A stretch of DNA of 10,545 nucleotides, taken from the IMG/VR virus record IMGVR_UViG_2909303794_000003. The stretch is one strand, 5' to 3'. The notes under the pieces were generated by a model that saw only the letters and a program-made list of their open reading frames with translations, did not search any database and was not told where the DNA came from. Origin of the DNA: a virus. Taxonomy: Duplodnaviria > Heunggongvirae > Uroviricota > Caudoviricetes. Position numbers and translations under genes: made by a program. Positions 1 to 10,545 of this stretch are shown piece after piece; position 1 is the first letter of the stretch, and every line of letters begins with the position of its first letter.

Positions 1-378
1 ATGACCGTATCAAAACGTGGCCGTGTGCCAAAAACAATCAAAGAAGCCGTACAAGAGCAGTTCAGTCGCATGGGGGAAAGCTACTATGCGAACATCAAGT
101 GGGCGAAATCAGTTAATGCCCATTACTTCAAGGTCATTCGGGAATCGGATCAGCCAGAACCGATTTTCTACACCTTCTCAGTAATTGATGAAGAGATACA
201 TTATACATATTTTGACGTGAACACCTTTGAAGCAACTCAGCTATCGTTAGCTTGCTCAGAGGATGCGTTCTTTCAATTCATGTTTAGGTGTGATCTACCG
301 TTAGACTTCGATGCATTTACCGAAATTATGCGTTTGATCTCATTGCATGGATTAGATGTCACTGCCTTTTATAAATAA
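1..378 (+). CDS. hypothetical protein (125 aa)
   Basis: ORF from the track, ATG at position 1 and stop TAA 376-378. It begins at the window edge, so the true start could lie upstream. No recognisable catalytic or binding motif. No AGTACT sites inside it. Confidence 0.45.
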   Translation: MTVSKRGRVPKTIKEAVQEQFSRMGESYYANIKWAKSVNAHYFKVIRESDQPEPIFYTFSVIDEEIHYTYFDVNTFEATQLSLACSEDAFFQFMFRCDLPLDFDAFTEIMRLISLHGLDVTAFYK

Positions 379-445
379 GACATTATATCAACTCCTATTT
401 TTGTTAGTCGTGATAAATAAGACTGTAAAAATAGGAGGGTTGATT

Positions 446-625
446 ATGACTTGGCTCAGTAATGTACTCATTGAAGTACTCGCAACTATAATTTATATGT
501 TTGTGCTATTTCCATGTTGGATAGTACTGCATCTTTGTTTTATGGTTTTGGTAGTATTACTGCTACCATTTAAGATTCCAGCTATAAATAGATATGTAAT
601 GACAAAGATGAAACGCCAAAAATAA
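446..625 (+). CDS. small hydrophobic membrane protein (59 aa), two predicted TM helices, basic C-terminal tail
   Basis: Track ORF 356..625, but ATG 446 is preferred because a consensus Shine-Dalgarno AGGAGG (433-438) sits 7 nt upstream. Product MTWLSNVLIEVLATIIYMFVLFPCWIVLHLCFMVLVVLLLPF... is almost entirely hydrophobic and ends RYVMTKMKRQK. Confidence 0.5.
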   Translation: MTWLSNVLIEVLATIIYMFVLFPCWIVLHLCFMVLVVLLLPFKIPAINRYVMTKMKRQK

Positions 626-628
626 ATA

Positions 629-637
629 TGGTATAAT
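629..637 (+). promoter_or_regulatory. candidate sigma70 extended -10 element TGgTATAAT, with a second TATAAT at 643-648
   Basis: Exact TGnTATAAT in the intergenic region between the 59-aa ORF and the RHH-like ORF. No convincing -35, which extended -10 promoters do not need. Sequence only. Confidence 0.3.
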
Positions 638-663
638 ATCACTATAATTCCTCCAATAATTTG

Positions 664-687
664 CCCCAATTATTTGGGGTGCTTTTT
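664..687 (+). terminator. candidate intrinsic terminator or attenuator hairpin
   Basis: CCCCAA (664-669), loop TTAT, TTGGGG (674-679), then TGC and TTTTT (683-687). The T-run is offset 3 nt from the stem, so this is a weaker-than-canonical terminator. Confidence 0.35.
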
Positions 688-729
688 GTGTGGAAGAAAA
701 TCAGAAAAGTTTAACAAAAGGATATTGTT

Positions 730-882
730 ATGAAAGAAAAGAAAACGATTAGTGTTGGAGTGAGATTAAATCCTACACAAGAAGAAATACTAAAATCACT
801 TATAGAATGTGGTAAGGCTACTACGATTAGTTCAGCCATTCAGTATCTGATACATCAGTATGCGATTTTAGGTAGCAAGTAA
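730..882 (+). CDS. small ribbon-helix-helix-like DNA-binding protein (50 aa), putative regulator
   Basis: ORF below the track size cutoff, found by reading: ATG 730, SD AAGGA (718-722) 7 nt upstream, stop TAA 880-882. Product MKEKKTISVGVRLNPTQEEILKSLIECGKATTISSAIQYLIHQYAILGSK has a short N-terminal beta-strand segment (ISVGVRL) followed by two helical segments, the pattern of CopG/Arc/MetJ-type RHH proteins. Fold assignment is inference. Confidence 0.4.
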   Translation: MKEKKTISVGVRLNPTQEEILKSLIECGKATTISSAIQYLIHQYAILGSK

Positions 883-906
883 GGGTTTGGTACTTTCACT
901 TTAGAA

Positions 907-923
907 AAGTACTGGCAGTACTT
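907..923. promoter_or_regulatory. 17-bp perfect palindrome AAGTACTGGCAGTACTT flanked by further GTACTT half-sites (888-893, 932-937); candidate operator
   Basis: Perfect 8-1-8 inverted repeat read directly. It lies 25 bp downstream of the RHH-like gene and 69 bp upstream of the IS2 left end. No T-run follows, so it is not a terminator. Confidence 0.35.
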
Positions 924-991
924 CAGGATGAAGTACTTATTTTCAAGGAAGAAATATGAAGAAGGAAAAAAGAAATGACCTAAAAGGTCAG

Positions 992-1032
992 TAGACTGGC
1001 CCCCTGAATCTCCAGACAACCAATATCACTTA
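992..1032. repeat. IS2 left terminal inverted repeat (IRL), about 41 bp
   Basis: Imperfect inverted match to the right end (shared CTGG..CC..T.T.TCCAGACA.C...TATCACTTAA core). Extent follows established IS2 knowledge. Confidence 0.7.
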
Positions 1033-1082
1033 AATAAGTGATAGTCTTAATACTAGTTTTTAGACTAGTCATTGGAGAGCAG

Positions 1083-1448
1083 ATGATTGATGTCTTAGGA
1101 CCGGAGAAACGCAGACGGCGTACTACACAGGAAAAGATCGCTATTGTTCAGCAGAGCTTTGAACCGGGAATGACGGTCTCCCTTGTTGCCCGGCAACACG
1201 GTGTGGCAGCCAGCCAGTTATTTCTCTGGCGCAAGCAATACCAGGAGGGAAGTCTTACTGCTGTGGCCGCAGGAGAGCAGGTCGTTCCTGCCTCTGAACT
1301 TGCTGCTGCCATGAAGCAGATTAAAGAACTCCAGCGCCTGCTCGGCAAAAAAACGATGGAAAATGAACTCCTTAAAGAAGCCGTTGAATACGGGCGTGCA
1401 AAAAAGTGGATAGCGCACGCGCCCTTATTGCCCGGGGATGGGGAGTAA
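1083..1448 (+). CDS. insC: IS2 transposase OrfA (InsC), 121 aa
   Basis: Product [56 protein letters not shown]... is recognised as IS2 InsC. The track ORF starts at an upstream GTG (1038); ATG 1083 is the known start. Confidence 0.9.
1400..1406 (+). other. A AAA AAG slippery heptamer for programmed -1 ribosomal frameshifting (InsC to InsCD fusion)
   Basis: A6G lies in the InsC frame (gcA AAA AAG) exactly where the InsD frame, which is -1 relative to InsC, opens at 1406. This is the standard IS3-family OrfAB arrangement. Confidence 0.6.
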
Positions 1449-2311
1449 GCTTAGTCAGCCGTTGTCTCCGGGTGTCGCGTGCGCAGTTGCACGTAATTCT
1501 CAGACGAACCGATGACTGGAAAGATGGTCGCCGCAGCCGTCACTCAGATGATACGGATGTGCTTCTCCGTATACACCATGTTATCGGAGAGCTGCCCACG
1601 TATGGTTATCGTCGGGTATGGGCGCTGCTTCGCAGACAGGCCGAACTTGATGGTATGCCTGCGATCAATGCCAAACGTGTTTACCGGATCATGCGCCAGA
1701 ATGCGCTGTTGCTTGAGCGAAAAACCGCTGTACCGCTATCGAAACGGGCACATACTGGCAAAGTGGCCGTGAAAGAAAGCAATCAACGATGGTGCTCTGA
1801 CGGGTTCGAGTTCCGCTGTGATAACGGAGAAAAACTGCGAGTCACGTTCGCGCTGGACTGCTGTGACCGTGAGGCACTGCACTGGGCAGTCACTACGGGC
1901 GGCTTCGACAGTGAAACAGTACAGGACGTCATGCTGGGAGCGGTGGAACGCCGCTTCGGCAACGAGCTTCCGGCGTCTCCAGTAGAGTGGCTGACGGATA
2001 ATGGTTCATGCTACCGGGCTAATGAAACACGGCAGTTTGCCCGGATATTGGGGCTTGAACCGAAGAACACGGCGGTGCGGAGTCCGGAGAGTAACGGCAT
2101 AGCAGAGAGCTTCGTGAAAACGATAAAGCGTGACTACATCAGTATCATGCCTAAACCAGACGGGTTAACGGCAGCAAAGAACCTTGCAGAGGCGTTCGAG
2201 CATTATAACGAATGGCATCCGCATAGTGCACTGGGTTATCGCTCGCCACGGGAATATCTACGGCAGCGGGCCAGTAATGGGTTAAGTGATAACAGGTGTC
2301 TGGAAATATAG
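1406..2311 (+). CDS. insD: IS2 transposase OrfB (InsD), DDE catalytic domain, 301 aa
   Basis: Product ...[37 protein letters not shown]...[50 protein letters not shown]... is recognised as IS2 InsD. Expressed mainly as the InsCD frameshift fusion. Confidence 0.9.
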
Positions 2312-2322
2312 GGGCAAATCCA
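2282..2322. repeat. IS2 right terminal inverted repeat (IRR), about 41 bp
   Basis: ...TTAAGTGATAACAGGTGTCTGGAAATATAGGGGCAAATCCA at the element end. Confidence 0.7.
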
Positions 2323-2356
2323 ACTTGCTTTAGGGGGCTTCCTTAAAGATGCACAG

Positions 2357-2628
2357 ATGAATATTACACTCGTTATCCTGAATCCCTATAACAGTACTGT
2401 ATTGTACTCCATGCTGATGTTCTCAGGATTTGTTGATTACATTCAGGCAGTAGCCGATCCAAATGAAAAAACGAATGAAATGACAGTTTACGTGAATAGC
2501 ATTTATAAGAAGCTGGACAGACAGCCACCACTAATTGCTGCCAATTCAGTATATCAATCTCTCTATAAAGGGGATGAATACTTTAGTTTATTAGGACAGG
2601 TGAATCAGGATCAAACGTGGAGATACAA

Positions 2629-2632
<4 letters not shown>
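2357..2632 (+). CDS. hypothetical phage protein (91 aa), first gene after IS2; possibly a 5'-truncated remnant
   Basis: Track ORF. ATG 2357 has only a weak SD and lies 35 bp from the IS2 right end. Its stop overlaps the start of the next gene (ATGA at 2629-2632), indicating translational coupling into the tail module. The product has no recognisable motif. Confidence 0.4.
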
Positions 2633-6220
<3,588 letters not shown>

Positions 6221-6221
<1 letters not shown>

Positions 6222-6520
6222 TGGCACAGGGTTTACAATGCTGGGATGCATCTGGACGATTAATTGTCGATATTGGTGATTACAACATGCGGTACATGGG
6301 ATCAGTCAATCTTAATGTATCGGCTGGTAGTACTACATCATGGAATGTAGCCTGGTCGGGTATGCGTCCAACGGGTTGGTTGGCAGTAATGCGAGTGAGT
6401 CAGTACTGGAATGAGTTTTACTGTATTCCGGGTACTAACGCTTTCACCGTTCAATATCTTCCAGTGAGTGGCGTTTATGCCCAAACATTAACATTCGATA
6501 TATACAAATATGACGTGTAA
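6221..6520 (+). CDS. hypothetical protein (99 aa), one copy of a repeated ~100-aa domain; likely tail-fibre or receptor-binding accessory
   Basis: Track ORF 6215..6520 starts at a GTG; ATG 6221 overlaps the J stop (TAATG), indicating coupling. It shares the motifs G-x-Q-x-[WY]-[DN]-[AS]-[SA]-G-x-L and C-[IF]-PG with both halves of the next ORF. Confidence 0.55.
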
Positions 6521-6528
6521 GGATCACT

Positions 6529-7176
6529 ATGTCAGGTTTTCAGGTTTACAATTCAGCAGGTGCTCTTACGATAGATTCCGATAATAAATCGGTCGTAATG
6601 AGTTCCGTTAAAGCAATGGGCACACTCTCAGATACAGGGTATTACCTCATTAACAGTGCTTTTGGTAATGGAAGTACGTTGGGGTATCTGCCTCTAAATT
6701 TCTTCCCCAATACGGGACTACGCTGGTTCCAGCTACAGACAAATGGAAAGTACTGTTTTCCCGGCTCGGCAATGTTCGAGGCAGGTTCAGGGCGGTTCAT
6801 GCTCTCCAGTAATACCACGGCTCTTACATCGGGCTATCTCGATGTGTATAACAGTGCTGGAACATTGATCTGGTCTGCTGCCAGTGCGGGTACAATGCCA
6901 CGTATTCAGGGTTTCCTTACCGTGCCATCCTCTCATGATCTCGGTACTGCCTTGACGCTTACGACGAGTTTTGCCGATCCGTGGATATGCATTAGTCAGT
7001 GTCCGGGCAACATATCCGATGATGGCGGCACAGTTGGCTATTCCGGCATTCTCATTAAAAGGAATAGCAGTACTTCATTCTCTTTACAGTATGTGAATAA
7101 GAACCAGAAGGCATATCGACAGGCAATGGGGAACAGCGGATTTCAAATTGCTTTAGCAAGTTTCACTGGTTATTGA
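6529..7176 (+). CDS. hypothetical protein (215 aa), tandem duplication of the same ~100-aa domain
   Basis: SD AAGGA 9 nt upstream of ATG 6529. Internal repeats GFQVYNSAGALTIDSD (N-terminal half) and YLDVYNSAGTLIWSAAS (C-terminal half), plus YCFPGS versus QCPGN, parallel LQCWDASGRLIVDIGD and YCIPGT in the previous ORF. Confidence 0.6.
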   Translation: MSGFQVYNSAGALTIDSDNKSVVMSSVKAMGTLSDTGYYLINSAFGNGSTLGYLPLNFFPNTGLRWFQLQTNGKYCFPGSAMFEAGSGRFMLSSNTTALTSGYLDVYNSAGTLIWSAASAGTMPRIQGFLTVPSSHDLGTALTLTTSFADPWICISQCPGNISDDGGTVGYSGILIKRNSSTSFSLQYVNKNQKAYRQAMGNSGFQIALASFTGY

Positions 7177-7184
7177 TATAAATA
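7177..7184 (+). promoter_or_regulatory. TATAAATA motif (T4-late-promoter-like, or a sigma70 -10 variant) 30 bp upstream of the 7214 start
   Basis: Exact TATAAATA in the short intergenic gap, followed by SD TAAGG (7201-7205) and ATG 7214. The same exact octamer occurs at 370-377 and 583-590 on the same strand. Confidence 0.25.
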
Positions 7185-7213
7185 CTCATAATAACAATAA
7201 TAAGGCATAATGT

Positions 7214-7486
7214 ATGGATTTCGGTACTATTGTTGCTCTTGTTATCGCTGGCCTTGGTTTTCTTTATACGATATTCCGTGACAGTTCTTCTGATACTGAA
7301 GATTTACTCACGCGAGTTTCGCAAATTGAAGCAAAGATACAACTGCACAGTAGCAGTATAGACCGCCTCGAAACAGAGCAGGATGAAATGAAGAAGACAT
7401 TACGTAATCTCGAAGATCAAATTCATCAACTGGATTTGAAGATTGAGCGTATTCTGACAATTCTCGAAAAGACAAAAGGGGCATAA
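7214..7486 (+). CDS. membrane-anchored coiled-coil protein (90 aa); possibly lysis-associated (i-spanin-like or holin-like)
   Basis: One N-terminal TM segment (FGTIVALVIAGLGFLYTIF) followed by a heptad-like charged helix (QIEAKIQLHSSSIDRLETEQDEMKKTLRNLEDQIHQLDLKIERILTILEK). Sits next to the endolysin but on the opposite strand. Function is inferred from architecture only. Confidence 0.55.
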   Translation: MDFGTIVALVIAGLGFLYTIFRDSSSDTEDLLTRVSQIEAKIQLHSSSIDRLETEQDEMKKTLRNLEDQIHQLDLKIERILTILEKTKGA

Positions 7487-7503
7487 TGCCCCTTTGTTAT
7501 TTT
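7474..7503. terminator. bidirectional intrinsic terminator between convergent genes
   Basis: Stem GGGGC (7478-7482), loop ATAAT, GCCCC (7488-7492), followed by TTTGTTATTTT on the plus strand and preceded by AAAA (TTTT on the minus strand). It overlaps the stop codons of both convergent ORFs. Confidence 0.6.
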
Positions 7504-7940
7504 AATTGATTATTCATATCTCTTACCCGGTTTGGCGTTTGCCTGTACCATAATGAATCAACGGACTCACGCCGCACACCATCACGATCTCCCGCCTTTG
7601 CTGCTGCCAGTAGTTTTCTGAATTTACTTACGCCATTCACCCCTAACTGAAAAATCATGATGATCAGATAGTCCTCAATATCGGCAGGAAGAGTACCCAA
7701 ACGTAATGTACTTAATCCTGTCCGGGCAACTGCAATATCTTTATCAAGTAAAGTCTCTGCCTCATTCGGGGATAATCCAGTACTGAAAATTTCCCCTGAT
7801 TTGATTAAATGTCCATACCCGACAGTGCTGAATCCCAATGAGTCAGAGTATGGGAAGAACTTTCCATTACGGAAGTACCCCAATTTTGTCTGATAGGCAA
7901 TCGTGCCTTTATATTCCTTAAGTCTGCTTTTTAAATCCAT
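7497..7940 (-). CDS. endolysin, T4-type lysozyme (glycoside hydrolase family 24), soluble, no signal-arrest-release (SAR) domain
   Basis: PYSDSLGFSTVGYGH matches the phage lysozyme motif (P22 AYSDSRGIPTIGVGH, T4 YKDTEGYYTIGIGH). MIFQLGVNGVSKF and SLWYRQTPNRVRDM match T4 lysozyme MVFQMGETGVAGF and SRWYNQTPNRAKRV. No N-terminal hydrophobic segment. Confidence 0.85.
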   Translation of the reverse strand: MDLKSRLKEYKGTIAYQTKLGYFRNGKFFPYSDSLGFSTVGYGHLIKSGEIFSTGLSPNEAETLLDKDIAVARTGLSTLRLGTLPADIEDYLIIMIFQLGVNGVSKFRKLLAAAKAGDRDGVRRESVDSLWYRQTPNRVRDMNNQLK

Positions 7941-7981
7941 TCACTAAATACCTATATAAATTACATATGGGTATTTAGTGA
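7941..7981. promoter_or_regulatory. 12-bp perfect inverted repeat TCACTAAATACC / GGTATTTAGTGA around a 17-bp AT-rich spacer; candidate divergent promoter-operator
   Basis: Arms at 7941-7952 and 7970-7981. The spacer TATATAAATTACATATG contains TATAAATT. Each arm abuts the start codon of one of the two divergent genes (endolysin ATG ends at 7940 on the minus strand; plus-strand ATG at 7981). Confidence 0.4.
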
Positions 7982-8430
7982 TGAGAATTAATAACAACTG
8001 GACGATGTTCGAACCAGAACAATGGGATATCAAGGAAGTAAATGAAGGTCTGTACTGTTCATTTGTGTACTTAATTGAATTTCCCGAAACGGGGGAGTAC
8101 TACTTCGGGAAGAAGCAGATATATAAAGGTATCAAAGATATTTCAAACCTTAAGGGTACTTCAACGGAAAGCAACTGGCTGGATTATACGGGCAGCAGTA
8201 AAAGTGTAAATGCCATGATTGATTCAGGTATGGAGTACTCAAAAAGGATTCTGTACTGCTTTAAAACTGATGCTGAAGCCACTTTAATTGAAACTGCATT
8301 GATTAGCTATTACGGCTTACATCCCGACAATCTCAATAAAGCCATTCTGTGTAAATCCCGATTGCCAAAAAATCGAATTGAATTGTTCCGGGTGCTACAG
8401 AGTTTGATCGAAATGTTGGGCGTGAGGTAA
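7981..8430 (+). CDS. hypothetical protein (149 aa); weak GIY-YIG-like / T5orf172-like motif
   Basis: Track ORF 7978..8430 starts at a GTG; ATG 7981 is adjacent. GLYCSFVYLIEFPETGEYYFGKK resembles the G-[IVL]-Y ... Y-[IV]-G-K beta-hairpin of GIY-YIG-superfamily domains, but the spacing is longer than canonical and the downstream conserved Arg/Glu are not evident. Low-confidence motif call. Confidence 0.45.
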   Translation: MRINNNWTMFEPEQWDIKEVNEGLYCSFVYLIEFPETGEYYFGKKQIYKGIKDISNLKGTSTESNWLDYTGSSKSVNAMIDSGMEYSKRILYCFKTDAEATLIETALISYYGLHPDNLNKAILCKSRLPKNRIELFRVLQSLIEMLGVR

Positions 8431-8432
8431 AT

Positions 8433-9002
8433 ATGATTAGAGGCAGAATAACAGGGCTGAATAACGCAACAACCTATCTTAATACTACAGGTCAACGTCT
8501 TGGACGTGACTTTCAGAATGAAATAATCAAAAGGTCAAGGGCGTTATCAGCCAAAATGCAAATGGACTTAAACAATGCCGTCGATAAAGGAGCAGTACCT
8601 TTCACTCAGCGTTCCATTCTCTTTATGTACAAGAAAGTTGGTAATGGAGTTCGCAGTACTATTCTCGTGAAGGATCTACAAGCGAAGTACTTATATGACG
8701 TACTTGTTGAGGAAAAAGCCCTTGATAAGTTTGTACCAACGAGTAAGGCACGTCTTGATCGGTTCGGTAACATTGCAGGGTTGAAACGTAATCTATCAAA
8801 TGGGCGTTATAAGGTCATTAAAGGGAAGAATGGTAAAGAGCGATTGATTGATACCAGCCAGAAGAAGAAAGAAAAGCGAGTAATTGGATTACGTGAAAGT
8901 AAGAAACGTAAAATCATTTATGATTTCTATGCAGAAGCAGAGAAGGGGGCAAGACTTGTTCTCGCAGGGATACAGGGATCGTTTGTTATAAAAAAGGGAT
9001 AA
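8433..9002 (+). CDS. hypothetical basic protein (189 aa) with a Lys/Arg-rich C-terminal region
   Basis: SD GAGG 8 nt upstream; start is 3 nt after the previous stop. The C-terminal part (KGKNGKERLIDTSQKKKEKRVIGLRESKKRK) is strongly basic, suggesting nucleic-acid binding. The N-terminal 60 aa loosely resembles the HK97 gp10-like tail-component pattern (RAL...A...AVP...RS); unverified. Confidence 0.5.
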   Translation: MIRGRITGLNNATTYLNTTGQRLGRDFQNEIIKRSRALSAKMQMDLNNAVDKGAVPFTQRSILFMYKKVGNGVRSTILVKDLQAKYLYDVLVEEKALDKFVPTSKARLDRFGNIAGLKRNLSNGRYKVIKGKNGKERLIDTSQKKKEKRVIGLRESKKRKIIYDFYAEAEKGARLVLAGIQGSFVIKKG

Positions 9003-9003
9003 T

Positions 9004-9315
9004 ATGAATTTTGAAGAACACTATGGTGAACTTACGAGTGAGATAACGCTGAATGGTACTATACCAGATGGTAATAGTATGCCAATCAACAAGTGCTTTC
9101 TCGGAAAGAAGTTCCAGAAGCAATTGAAGAAAGCAGATATACAGATTGAGTGCTTTATGAATATCTGCTACGAGAAAAAACAAAGTTTTAAAGATGGTGA
9201 AGTACTCACATGGTCACTACAGGGTGATGAAATGGATGTGTACTTAATCGAAAGTAAAAGGTTATTTGTAAAGGGAAAGCACTTTTGGGGATATTGTGTG
9301 GGGATCATTGAATGA
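9004..9315 (+). CDS. hypothetical protein (103 aa)
   Basis: SD AAGGGA upstream; start is 2 nt after the previous stop; Cys-containing; no recognisable motif. Confidence 0.5.
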   Translation: MNFEEHYGELTSEITLNGTIPDGNSMPINKCFLGKKFQKQLKKADIQIECFMNICYEKKQSFKDGEVLTWSLQGDEMDVYLIESKRLFVKGKHFWGYCVGIIE

Positions 9316-9602
9316 TTGGAATGATAATTGATTTAATCAAAACTGGATTGGGCTTCTTCCAGAAAAAAGAACAAAGCAAACAGGAACTGGACGCACAGAA
9401 CAGTCACGAGCAGAACGAGATCACACTTGAAGAAACACGTAAGGGCTTCACGTGGCGACAGGGTTTAGGCTGGGTACTAACGTTCATCATTCTATGGAAC
9501 TACGTCATTGTGCCAGTACTGGCATTGTGTGGTGTAGTACTTCCCATAGTTCCACTTGATGAAATATGGAAAGTACTGATCATCTTAATCGGTGGGAGTT
9601 GA
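9312..9602 (+). CDS. small membrane protein (96 aa): hydrophilic N-terminal half, two C-terminal hydrophobic segments
   Basis: ATGA start/stop overlap with the previous gene. C-terminal GLGWVLTFIILWNYVIVPVLALCGVVLPIV and IWKVLIILIGG are predicted TM helices. The protein ends immediately after the last helix, unlike a typical holin with a charged C-terminal tail. Its 3' end overlaps the convergent minus-strand ORF by 18 bp. Confidence 0.5.
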   Translation: MIGMIIDLIKTGLGFFQKKEQSKQELDAQNSHEQNEITLEETRKGFTWRQGLGWVLTFIILWNYVIVPVLALCGVVLPIVPLDEIWKVLIILIGGS

Positions 9603-10283
9603 TTTTGTCTCTCTAAACAATACTCGCCATGAAGTAAGCCATGTTGAAGGGAGGATTTGGGTAAGTGCGAAGGCTGGTATGAAACTCAAATTATGAAATT
9701 CCCAATTCTTCTTGCGTGCCATACCACTTACATCTTGACATATGTTAATCATTTTATCGCTAATGATAATAAAGTTGTAGTAATGTGTTATACATTGTTC
9801 AAGTTCTTTAGACTTGTCTGGATGTACTTCAATGTTCCAAACTCGTAATATATCTAATTGCGATTTCAATTTAATCAGATGATCTTTATAATCAGCATGC
9901 AAGTCATTTACCTTAGAGTTTTTGCTTTGGTACTCTTTATCGGTGATGTTAAGATCTTTATTTCCTAACATTTCATACATATCATTGATATAAGTATGTA
10001 ATATTTCCGCCTTTACTTTCGCTTCAATAAAGTAACTGATATAAACGTTTGCTTGTTCAAAACCTTTTTCATTAAGTTTTGAATCTAACCATCTATAAAC
10101 TTTAAAAACTGTGATGAGTGCTATTACTGCCATTATAGTATCCATGATTGCTGATGTAGTAGAGCTATCATATCCATGAAGTAATAGTAAATCGGTGTAA
10201 ATTGGTATTAATGCACCAATAGCAAGACATGCAATATGTGAAAATCTTATTTCATTTCTGATTTTTTTTAAAATCACTTTCAA
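9585..10283 (-). CDS. two-TM membrane protein with a ~160-aa helical cytoplasmic domain (232 aa if the TTG start is used); unknown function, candidate exclusion or abortive-infection effector
   Basis: Track ORF with a TTG start at 10283 (GTG at 10277 is an alternative); AGGGA lies 4 nt upstream of the TTG; the first ATG is at codon 46. Two N-terminal hydrophobic helices (HIACLAIGALIPIYTDLLLL and IMDTIMAVIALITVFKVY). The region is markedly AT-rich (roughly 30% GC by eye) and has no AGTACT sites, unlike the phage backbone. Confidence 0.5.
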   Translation of the reverse strand: MKVILKKIRNEIRFSHIACLAIGALIPIYTDLLLLHGYDSSTTSAIMDTIMAVIALITVFKVYRWLDSKLNEKGFEQANVYISYFIEAKVKAEILHTYINDMYEMLGNKDLNITDKEYQSKNSKVNDLHADYKDHLIKLKSQLDILRVWNIEVHPDKSKELEQCITHYYNFIIISDKMINICQDVSGMARKKNWEFHNLSFIPAFALTQILPSTWLTSWRVLFRETKSTPTD

Positions 10284-10305
10284 AGCATCCCTATGAAATT
10301 ATTGG

Positions 10306-10330
10306 AAAGCCTGTATATAGCACAGGCTTT
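10306..10330. promoter_or_regulatory. 9-bp perfect inverted repeat AAAGCCTGT (7-nt loop) ACAGGCTTT in the gap between the two minus-strand genes
   Basis: Read directly. It lies between the stop of the 69-aa ORF (10336) and the start of the membrane-protein ORF (10283). On the minus-strand transcript it is not followed by a U-run, so an operator or RNA regulatory hairpin is more likely than a terminator. Confidence 0.35.
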
Positions 10331-10335
10331 TATTG

Positions 10336-10545
10336 TTACCAATCCCAATCAATAGTAGTATCCAAATCACGCAAGTTAGTATGTTCTGTGCGAGTCGCTA
10401 CGAGAACAACATCACCAGTTTCTTTCGAAACAATATCAAAAACTTCAATTTCCGTTTGGCCCATTGTACCTTTCGTTCTAAAACTCTTTCTGACGTAAGT
10501 GTATTTTTCTTTTGGATAATTACTTTCAAATAATGCTTCATTCAT
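10336..10545 (-). CDS. hypothetical small protein (at least 69 aa), upstream partner of the two-TM protein
   Basis: Track ORF. Its ATG is the last three bases of the window, so the real N-terminus and RBS cannot be confirmed and the gene may extend beyond the window. Product (…GQTEIEVFDIVSKETGDVVLVATRTEHTNLRDL…) looks like a real mixed-charge protein, unlike the low-complexity plus-strand ORF that overlaps it. Confidence 0.4.
   Translation of the reverse strand: MNEALFESNYPKEKYTYVRKSFRTKGTMGQTEIEVFDIVSKETGDVVLVATRTEHTNLRDLDTTIDWDW

Follow-up and report, generated by a model that had tools for sequence, protein, structure and literature searches.

A probable holin-endolysin module in an unusual arrangement at the lysis end of a decayed Escherichia coli prophage

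Introduction

Pfam family PF11351 includes the holin TeaA of phage ICP1 (10.1101/790493) and rcc00556, the putative holin of the Rhodobacter capsulatus gene transfer agent, RcGTA (PMC3423380). A member of this family is probably encoded near a T4-type lysozyme gene on the DNA analysed here, the 10,545 nucleotides (nt) of IMG/VR record IMGVR_UViG_2909303794_000003 (hereafter the window), which hold part of an E. coli prophage. Positions 7214-7940, the subject of an earlier first-pass annotation, span exactly the gene of a 90-amino-acid (aa) membrane-anchored coiled-coil protein (cc90), a hairpin and the lysozyme gene, and further to the right an operon ends with the gene of a 96-aa membrane protein (tm96). 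We consider it fairly probable that these genes form the lysis end of a prophage in decay, in which tm96 is the holin, the lysozyme is the endolysin, the lysozyme and cc90 genes share a terminator, and the inversion of one gene separates the layout from an ordinary cassette.

As with TeaA of ICP1 and rcc00555/rcc00556 of RcGTA, the muralytic enzyme is accompanied by a small membrane protein from the same Pfam family, and enzyme and holin are encoded apart from the main run of structural genes, forming one operon in those relatives of the prophage in which they are co-oriented. Unlike in these systems, three unrelated genes (for a GIY-YIG protein, a neck-like protein and the protein p103) lie between enzyme and holin, the enzyme gene is inverted in most members of the family, and tm96 is shorter (96 aa) with one confident transmembrane helix. 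We know of no antiholin for the lysozyme/tm96 module.

For cc90, the closest parallel is the releasin gp25 of phage Mu (DUF2730, PF10805). The two have a length of ~90-100 aa, an 'MD' start and a transmembrane segment at the N-terminus in common, along with a gene beside that of the endolysin and a predicted N-out/C-in topology that leaves a helical domain in the cytoplasm (PMC9239132). DUF2730 proteins accompany cytoplasmic endolysins too, according to the same Mu paper (PMC9239132). Unlike Mu, the prophage is not transposable, its endolysin has no signal-anchor-release (SAR) domain, and cc90 ends the tail operon, convergent to the endolysin gene rather than downstream of it. Like cc90, XhlA of PBSX (PF10779) and Lcc6 of LambdaSo are small proteins with a single transmembrane segment, which are not holins themselves and are needed for, or act with, the holin. 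In XhlA of the Bacillus element PBSX the transmembrane segment is C-terminal, whereas in cc90 it is N-terminal. The 65 aa of Lcc6, from the Shewanella phage LambdaSo, comprise a transmembrane segment at the N-terminus and a tail in the cytoplasm (10.1101/2024.01.23.576932). Similarity between cc90 and Lcc6 was not found.

Dispersed lysis genes, with endolysin and holin genes non-adjacent and separately transcribed, occur in T4 (e, t, rI and the spanins) and P1 (lyz, lydA/B). Unlike in T4 and P1, the genes described here lie within 2.4 kb, have one palindromic control region and are a single-gene inversion away from a cassette. As predicted from its genes, the system is an unusually arranged holin-endolysin module of known kinds, accompanied by a conserved, accessory-like protein, cc90.

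Results and Discussion

The cc90 and lysozyme genes converge on a predicted shared terminator

The two genes converge with their stop codons 10 nt apart. At 7475-7495 a hairpin, AAAGGGGCA-TAA-TGCCCCTTT, forms nine pairs, five of them G-C; its loop is the stop codon of cc90, its stem consists in part of the last cc90 codons, and the stop codon of the lysozyme gene (7497-7499) lies 1 nt beyond the stem. The hairpin is followed by the tail GTTATTTTAA on the plus strand and TGTCTTTTCG on the minus strand, and a terminator was called in both directions. Around it a wider inverted repeat (7467-7484 and 7486-7503) could be delimited, with an A-tract upstream and a T-tract downstream. Compared with shuffled sequence, the RNA fold of the hairpin has a z of -4.6 on the plus and -2.8 on the minus strand. 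With a GC-rich stem and a U-tract on both strands, the hairpin is predicted to be a bidirectional intrinsic terminator.

The arrangement is not peculiar to this copy. The convergent pair, with a gap of 9-11 nt, was found again in ~25 distinct related loci whose lysozymes are 50-95% identical, and 21 of 26 distinct relatives carry a stable hairpin with flanking A and T tracts at or just past the stop codon of the cc gene. The left arm of the stem is coding (K-G-A-stop), so its conservation could be partly driven by the protein, as would be expected if the hairpin were merely a by-product of tight gene packing that terminates no transcription. This is extremely improbable in view of the fold score on the plus strand and of the relatives with different cc C-termini, which keep the hairpin and both tracts while their stem sequences are often wholly different; unrelated stems at the same spot argue for a selected terminator and not for coincidental packing. 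In the co-oriented relatives, a terminator is present after the cc gene as well. The claim of the first-pass annotation that the endolysin and coiled-coil genes are convergent and share a bidirectional terminator is thus confirmed by the spacing of the stop codons, the two-strand call, the fold score and the conservation.

The lysozyme is a T4-type enzyme and the predicted endolysin of the family

The lysozyme scored 34.4 bits against PF00959 (cut-off 22.3), and phmmer matched it to structures of T4 lysozyme and gp5 with E-values of 1e-10 to 1e-8. In the alignment to T4 lysozyme, D33 corresponds to Asp20 and T39 to Thr26, and both are invariant. Neither a signal peptide nor a SAR segment was found in it, and a 95%-identical orthologue likewise has no hydrophobic segment; such an enzyme needs a hole-forming holin.

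Complete relatives of the prophage were rebuilt from L009, L053 and L079, with the left flank L134, by walking IMG/VR contigs (relatives labelled L001, L008 and so on are IMG/VR contigs and genomes). In these elements of ~31-36 kb the lysozyme is the sole muralytic gene, and no second one or other lysis cassette was found. The first-pass annotation had seen no canonical holin-endolysin-spanin cassette and had named the discovery of one elsewhere in the genome as the finding that would overturn its reading; the relatives, read from end to end, hold none. Its description of the lysozyme as a lone minus-strand gene was also borne out, this being the only gene of the module on that strand.

A virion-associated or otherwise non-lytic paralogue, with the real lysis cassette elsewhere, would agree with several features of the gene. 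It directly follows the tail genes, among PHROGs it best matches 'baseplate hub subunit and tail lysozyme' in the C-terminal lysozyme domain (phrog_13211, 9e-31), and its nearest cultured homologues are jumbo-phage lysozymes (~45% identity). We regard this as very improbable, since between the recombinase and DUF2188 the complete relatives lack any further lysis cassette or muralytic gene, the enzyme is free-standing with 147 aa and no attachment domain, and its gene heads an operon that ends in a holin-family gene. In the relatives, the T4-type lysozyme is the predicted phage endolysin.

The copy in the window differs at one decisive residue. Its codon 11 encodes Lys at the position of the catalytic Glu11 of T4 lysozyme (YEG to YKG), whereas Glu is present in T4 lysozyme and in all 24 other relative loci listed (as YEG or LEG). 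E11 is also carried by the alleles P0151 and P0155, which are 99% identical to that of the window. Among E. coli contigs, 23 have the K11 allele (P0150). In T4 lysozyme, Glu11 acts as the general acid, and it belongs to the Glu/Asp/Thr triad conserved in T4-like endolysins (PMC5606550; PMC8228626, Table 3). The window lysozyme therefore belongs to the T4-type family by descent, and this allele is probably inactive; its co-expression with a membrane protein would probably give no lysis for this trivial reason.

tm96 is a probable holin

The tm96 gene begins ~1.4 kb from the lysozyme gene. Five syntenic orthologues, 41-48% identical to the window protein, exceed the 24.8-bit cut-off of PF11351 (GTA_holin_3TM): L008 with 25.1, L011 with 25.4, L012 with 25.8, L014 with 30.7 and L015 with 28.6 bits. 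The window protein matches positions 39-116 of the 123 positions of this profile with 19.0 bits (E = 2e-3), and no other family competes consistently. Members of the tm96 family align end to end with 13 invariant columns; PF11351 is matched by 16 of 21 and phrog_3427 'holin' by 9 of 21. Because the orthologues lie above the cut-off, membership of the window protein is reached by orthology.

An AlphaFold2 model of tm96 (predicted local distance difference test score, pLDDT, 69) shows a long N-terminal helix of low confidence, a confident transmembrane helix (48-72) and a 12-residue helix (82-93); hydropathy gives a single long hydrophobic block at 51-88. Six of the 13 matches of the model in BFVD are annotated as holin, with weak E-values. 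A tblastn search of tm96 against cultured phages returned marginal matches only, to 63-aa T4-like proteins (E ~0.7). ORF137 of the RefSeq record of ICP1 does not belong to PF11351, the numbering differing from that of the paper, and the comparison of tm96 with TeaA was uninformative. Taken with its operon context, family membership makes tm96 a probable holin. No canonical holin had been seen next to the endolysin gene at first pass, and this stands in so far as none abuts the lysozyme gene and no spanin is recognisable; it fails for tm96, which matches a holin family, and the accompanying statement that the 96-aa protein does not look like a typical holin is contradicted by the five orthologues. 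In other respects, the membrane proteins near the lysozyme gene agree with their first-pass description.

Two types of tm96, ~45% identical, occur within prophages whose neighbouring genes are 91-98% identical (compare window 9312-9602, L008:1158-1451 and L009:1337-1633), a pattern suggesting that the holin-family gene was replaced in mosaic fashion. Immediately to the right of tm96 lies a slot that acts as a hot spot for cargo. In the window it holds the convergent gene of a 232-aa protein, the 3' end of which overlaps tm96 by 18 nt; in the relatives its place is taken by an effector-like nuclease of HNH/SAVED type, a KAP NTPase or an nSTAND3 protein (L009:482-1276; L137:7288-8601; L139:7301-9547).

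The other genes of the rightward operon are conserved too. giy150 matches PF19835 (SegE_GIY-YIG) with 1.7e-15 and is syntenic in every relative at 41-97% identity; it is thus conserved everywhere, whereas a mobile homing endonuclease would be expected to occur sporadically. p189 is probably a neck or tail-completion protein like HK97 gp10, a resemblance that would mark the operon as late. For p103, which is conserved in the relatives, no family match was obtained in Pfam, PHROG, NCBIfam or PADLOC, and scans of the module genes against NCBIfam and PADLOC gave nothing useful.

Two gene orders occur within the family

The genes are co-oriented in locus L074 and in relatives from Serratia marcescens, Pectobacterium and Yersinia. 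All lie on one strand in the order tail tip, cc85-88, terminator, lysozyme, GIY-YIG, p19x, p11x-12x and tm96-101, with the lysozyme and GIY-YIG genes 3-4 nt apart. The E. coli-type layout differs from this solely by the inversion of the lysozyme gene with its 5' region. As the lysozyme gene occupies the same site in either orientation and is coupled to the operon in the sister lineage, the lysozyme and the operon can be regarded as one conserved unit. The suggestion made at first pass that the cassette is rearranged is accordingly right to the extent that the lysozyme gene is flipped relative to Serratia, Yersinia, Pectobacterium and L074, and wrong if a local accident was meant, since the layout is that of the family majority.

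The divergent start region

The start codons of the lysozyme and giy150 genes are 37-40 nt apart, inside a 67-bp palindrome reaching into both genes. Its arms (7928-7957 and 7965-7994) have 30 nt each and are 80% complementary; the fold has ~-25 kcal/mol, with z = -6.6 and -6.4 on the two strands. Each arm contains a TAAATA motif and GGTATTTAGTGA immediately before a start codon. An inverted repeat is kept at this place in the relatives with changed arm sequences, and in the co-oriented ones it lies upstream of the lysozyme gene, with the ribosome-binding site in its 3' arm (e.g. TTCCTCC...GGAGGAA). The palindrome may be a control region shared by the divergent pair, as a candidate operator, as back-to-back promoters or as a hairpin masking the ribosome-binding sites.

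The best sigma-70 match of the region, TTTACA-16-TATAAT (11/12), lies within giy150, 242 nt upstream of the lysozyme ATG. A promoter-like site is found at the same distance in L001 and L008-L010 and at ~235 nt in L013 and L014, and is absent in L011 and L012; it is a consensus match only, and coding constraint could explain its positional conservation. If this site were used, the lysozyme mRNA would be antisense to giy150 over ~235 nt and would include the whole palindrome. For the giy150 operon, a scan for sigma-70-type promoters gave nothing consistent among the relatives.

Proposed course of lysis

In the explanation we favour, the rightward late operon (terminase, head, tail and J-like tip) ends with cc90 at the predicted intrinsic terminator, and the gene of the cytoplasmic lysozyme is read leftward into the same hairpin, which would serve both strands. 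The lysozyme gene and the rightward operon (GIY-YIG, p189, p103 and tm96) begin back to back within one palindrome; in the sister lineage the co-oriented lysozyme gene is the first, translationally coupled gene of the operon. The putative holin tm96 would accumulate in the inner membrane late in infection and then form holes, through which the pre-folded, soluble lysozyme would be released to the murein. cc90 would be anchored in the inner membrane, its coiled coil pointing into the cytoplasm, where, as a guess, it may modulate the triggering of the holin or the release of the endolysin. Disruption of the outer membrane would be due to an unrecognised factor, or would be dispensable.

No convincing o-spanin or u-spanin candidate emerged when the window and the lysis regions in L009, L137, L141 and L142 were scanned for lipoboxes. 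A complete relative has a single lipoprotein, which is Cor-like and encoded far from the lysis module (L079:5962-6252). About 15% of the phages that infect Gram-negative bacteria have no recognisable spanin (PMC6139136; 10.1101/515445).

Several points weigh against the favoured explanation. The missing spanin leaves the pathway incomplete, and consensus matching produced no consistently conserved promoter for either divergent unit. The tm96 of the window remains under the PF11351 cut-off (19.0 vs 24.8 bits), its model has one confident transmembrane helix and not three, and no annotated homologue, or homologue in a cultured phage, was found. cc90 has no significant family, its weak matches being scattered over generic coiled-coil families including Rz-like spanin PHROGs. 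In a neighbour-joining tree of the lysozymes, finally, the co-oriented forms are one clade nested among the inverted forms.

Such a nesting does not bear out the assumption that the co-oriented arrangement is ancestral. The inverted form, which most members have, may be the older one, and the flip may have gone either way.

The family adds to the small set of Gram-negative phages without a standard holin-endolysin-spanin cassette, and is uncultured but widespread. It combines a putative holin of the GTA/ICP1 type, an endolysin gene in two orientations, no recognisable spanin, and cc90 at the junction with the tail operon. Its natural inversion polymorphism offers material for studying how the expression of lysis genes is coordinated, and cc90 is a further candidate for the growing group of accessory lysis proteins.

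cc90 is a conserved membrane-tethered protein

The transmembrane segment of cc90 (~residues 3-21) is followed by a C-terminal coiled coil. The protein is kept beside the lysozyme in ~25 relatives at 45-100% identity, with 29 close relatives in all. A wider set comprises proteins of 80-100 aa in which an N-terminal transmembrane segment and a W..(F/Y)RD motif are combined with a coiled coil that ends in RILTILE, and hhalign matched the positional analogues in L137 and L074 (~23% identity) to the cc90 family profile with 81% and 95% probability. Among 47 wider members, 42 have no K/R ahead of the transmembrane segment, and on average 3.5 K/R occur in the 15 residues after it. By the positive-inside rule, this distribution predicts an N-out/C-in orientation with a cytoplasmic coiled coil, as in the DUF2730 releasin gp25 of Mu and in Lcc6 of LambdaSo.

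Membership in DUF2730 was examined by hmmscan (25 close and 47 wider relatives), by hhalign against Mu gp25 and by a profile search of 1.84 billion proteins. cc90 was rejected as a DUF2730 (PF10805) protein: it scored 16 bits against a cut-off of 24.9, with the coiled coil alone covered, where the control Mu gp25 reached 50.4 bits. Weak DUF2730 matches were obtained for 12 of the 25 close and 7 of the 47 wider relatives and were no better than those to generic coiled-coil families; hhalign gave 30% probability. The profile search also drew in long coiled-coil proteins, and no curated family matched consistently. Assignment to XhlA (PF10779) was rejected likewise, with 21.5 vs 34.7 bits, only the coiled coil covered and weak matches for 20 of 25 relatives. 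Other sub-threshold matches were to phrog_1009, phrog_1296 'holin' and Rz-like PHROGs. Against cultured phages, tblastn of cc90 found no match.

Since cc90 always abuts the lysozyme gene and has a single transmembrane segment, it could itself be the holin, and tm96 an unrelated membrane protein, e.g. an exclusion or cargo gene product, as the variable cargo site to the right of tm96 might suggest. A weak, near full-length match of cc90 to phrog_1296 (E = 7.6e-5) and those to XhlA-type lysis proteins point in the same direction. This assignment is unlikely, as phrog_1296 is matched by 2 of the 47 family members among matches scattered over generic coiled-coil families, and the predicted orientation places a soluble coiled coil of 68 residues in the cytoplasm, unlike known single-transmembrane holins. 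It is tm96, moreover, whose orthologues exceed a curated holin-family threshold and share the operon of the lysozyme in the co-oriented relatives.

With a transmembrane segment at the N-terminus and a coiled coil after it, cc90 also has the shape of an Rz-like i-spanin, whose outer-membrane lipoprotein partner would have been lost or become unrecognisable. Matches to the Rz-like phrog_739 in 13 of 47 members, others to phrog_7686 and phrog_89, and a weak match to the P2 LysB model (E = 8e-3) agree with this, and the juxtamembrane W..(F/Y)RD motif presumably recalls lambda Rz. The matches to Rz-like PHROGs and LysB are weak and do not surpass those to generic coiled-coil families. The positive-inside rule, in contrast, predicts a cytoplasmic coiled coil, the opposite of N-in/C-out; no open reading frame (ORF) with a lipobox was found embedded, overlapping or near in the window, three co-oriented relatives and one complete relative; and 90 aa is short for an i-spanin. 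An i-spanin function is hence very unlikely.

A conserved membrane-tethered protein is what these data describe, for which an accessory role in lysis is the leading guess, held with low confidence. Doubtful, though worth stating, is the joint reading that the cc90 family is a new class of lysis regulators and that the palindrome switches expression between the endolysin and the holin operon, either in a mutually exclusive manner or through hairpin gating. If it were true, a tethered cytoplasmic coiled coil of ~85-100 aa, always at the boundary of tail operon and endolysin, would, in phages without spanins, act alongside a cytoplasmic endolysin and a holin of PF11351, and would be functionally analogous, not homologous, to Mu releasin or LambdaSo Lcc6.

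Layout of the window and the parent prophage family

The gene map (Table 1) was compiled from the ORF list and from family scans (Pfam, PHROG). Scans of the window for Rfam families and tRNAs were empty.

Table 1. Coordinates of the features mapped in the window
Feature	Position	Strand	Basis or remark
Early-region fragment of the prophage	1-991		equals L134 9272-10262
IS2	992-2322	.	95-99% identity
207-aa tail gene, 3' half only	right flank of IS2, 2323-2632		right of IS2
DUF6950 protein	between 207-aa tail gene and J-like tail-tip gene		
J-like tail-tip protein, 1067 aa	3018-6221		
Two small conserved proteins	between tail-tip gene and cc90		
cc90, 90 aa, N-terminal transmembrane segment and coiled coil	7214-7486	+	ORF; last gene of rightward tail operon
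Predicted bidirectional intrinsic terminator	7467-7503, core stem-loop 7475-7495	.	terminator scan on both strands, inverted repeat, fold z
T4-type (GH24) lysozyme, 147 aa	7497-7940	-	PF00959
Lysozyme codon 11, AAA (Lys)	7908-7910	-	alignment
67-bp palindrome	7928-7994	.	inverted-repeat and fold analysis
giy150, GIY-YIG domain only	7981-8430	+	PF19835; alternative GTG start at 7978
Candidate sigma-70-type promoter facing the lysozyme gene	8183-8210	-	consensus match
p189, probable HK97-gp10-like neck/tail-completion protein	8433-9002	+	
p103, conserved, same operon as giy150	9004-9315	+	
tm96, 96-aa membrane protein, last gene of the operon	9312-9602	+	PF11351 family
232-aa membrane protein, two transmembrane segments	9585-10283	-	

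Exact copies of window 2323-10545 occur in E. coli assemblies beside mipA, yeaE and gapA, and this flank is 100% identical to E. coli chromosomes, which identifies E. coli as the host. The complete element, as reassembled from the relatives, has ~31-36 kb. Its left part runs from yeaG through a 644-aa serine recombinase, small early genes, an HNH-like gene, Hcp and DUF3800; the middle comprises the small and large terminase, portal, a protease-capsid fusion, tail genes, tape measure and tail tip; and cc90, the lysozyme, the giy150-tm96 operon, variable cargo, a methyltransferase and DUF2188 follow up to mipA. Besides the serine recombinase, the element encodes a lambda-type GpA terminase; no transposase is present in the complete relatives. 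Judged from these genes, the prophage is a member of an uncultured, siphovirus-like temperate family predicted to integrate by its serine recombinase between yeaG and mipA. A replication or repressor gene could not be recognised anywhere in the element.

The hosts of the family include E. coli, Klebsiella, Serratia, Yersinia, Pectobacterium and other genera, with loci also in Buttiauxella and Phytobacter. Nucleotide searches of cultured phages, plasmids and complete E. coli genomes returned IS2 and one diverged, insertion-sequence-ridden remnant only. This remnant, the sole related copy in 5,426 complete E. coli genomes, is L001 of E. coli AREA_C483 (NZ_CP123310.1, 2161417-2187133); it lies at the mipA site, is interrupted by IS3, IS5 and ISSen4, and has its cc90 homologue cut to a 40-aa ORF.

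In the early region of the relatives, a segment deleted in the window (L134:12816-14124) contains genes of DUF8209 and DUF1493 and one that resembles the type VI secretion gene Hcp. Within the early fragment that the window retains, 449-625 (+) encodes a protein of 58-59 aa with two hydrophobic segments and a Lys/Arg-rich C-terminus, located between p125 and a ribbon-helix-helix (RHH)-like 50-aa protein near the serine recombinase. It had no family match and is holin-like by shape alone.

Defective state of the copy in the window

The early region breaks off 36 nt into the HNH-like gene, where IS2 links it to a point midway in the 207-aa tail gene, and the window from 2323 onward corresponds to a complete relative from position 22314 onward. 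At the insertion sequence ~22 kb are absent, including the terminase, portal, capsid, tail tube and tape measure genes. With the Glu to Lys exchange in the lysozyme and the structural genes deleted, the lysis system in the window cannot be expected to work, and by its gene content the prophage is a dead relic. Its module, with a predicted dead enzyme, would be unsuitable as a source of active lysin.

Other strains with the same lysozyme allele retain at least the genes from the major tail protein through the tail tip. In one of them (L003:9062-9508), the p189 product has 148 aa instead of 189 aa, a further sign of decay.

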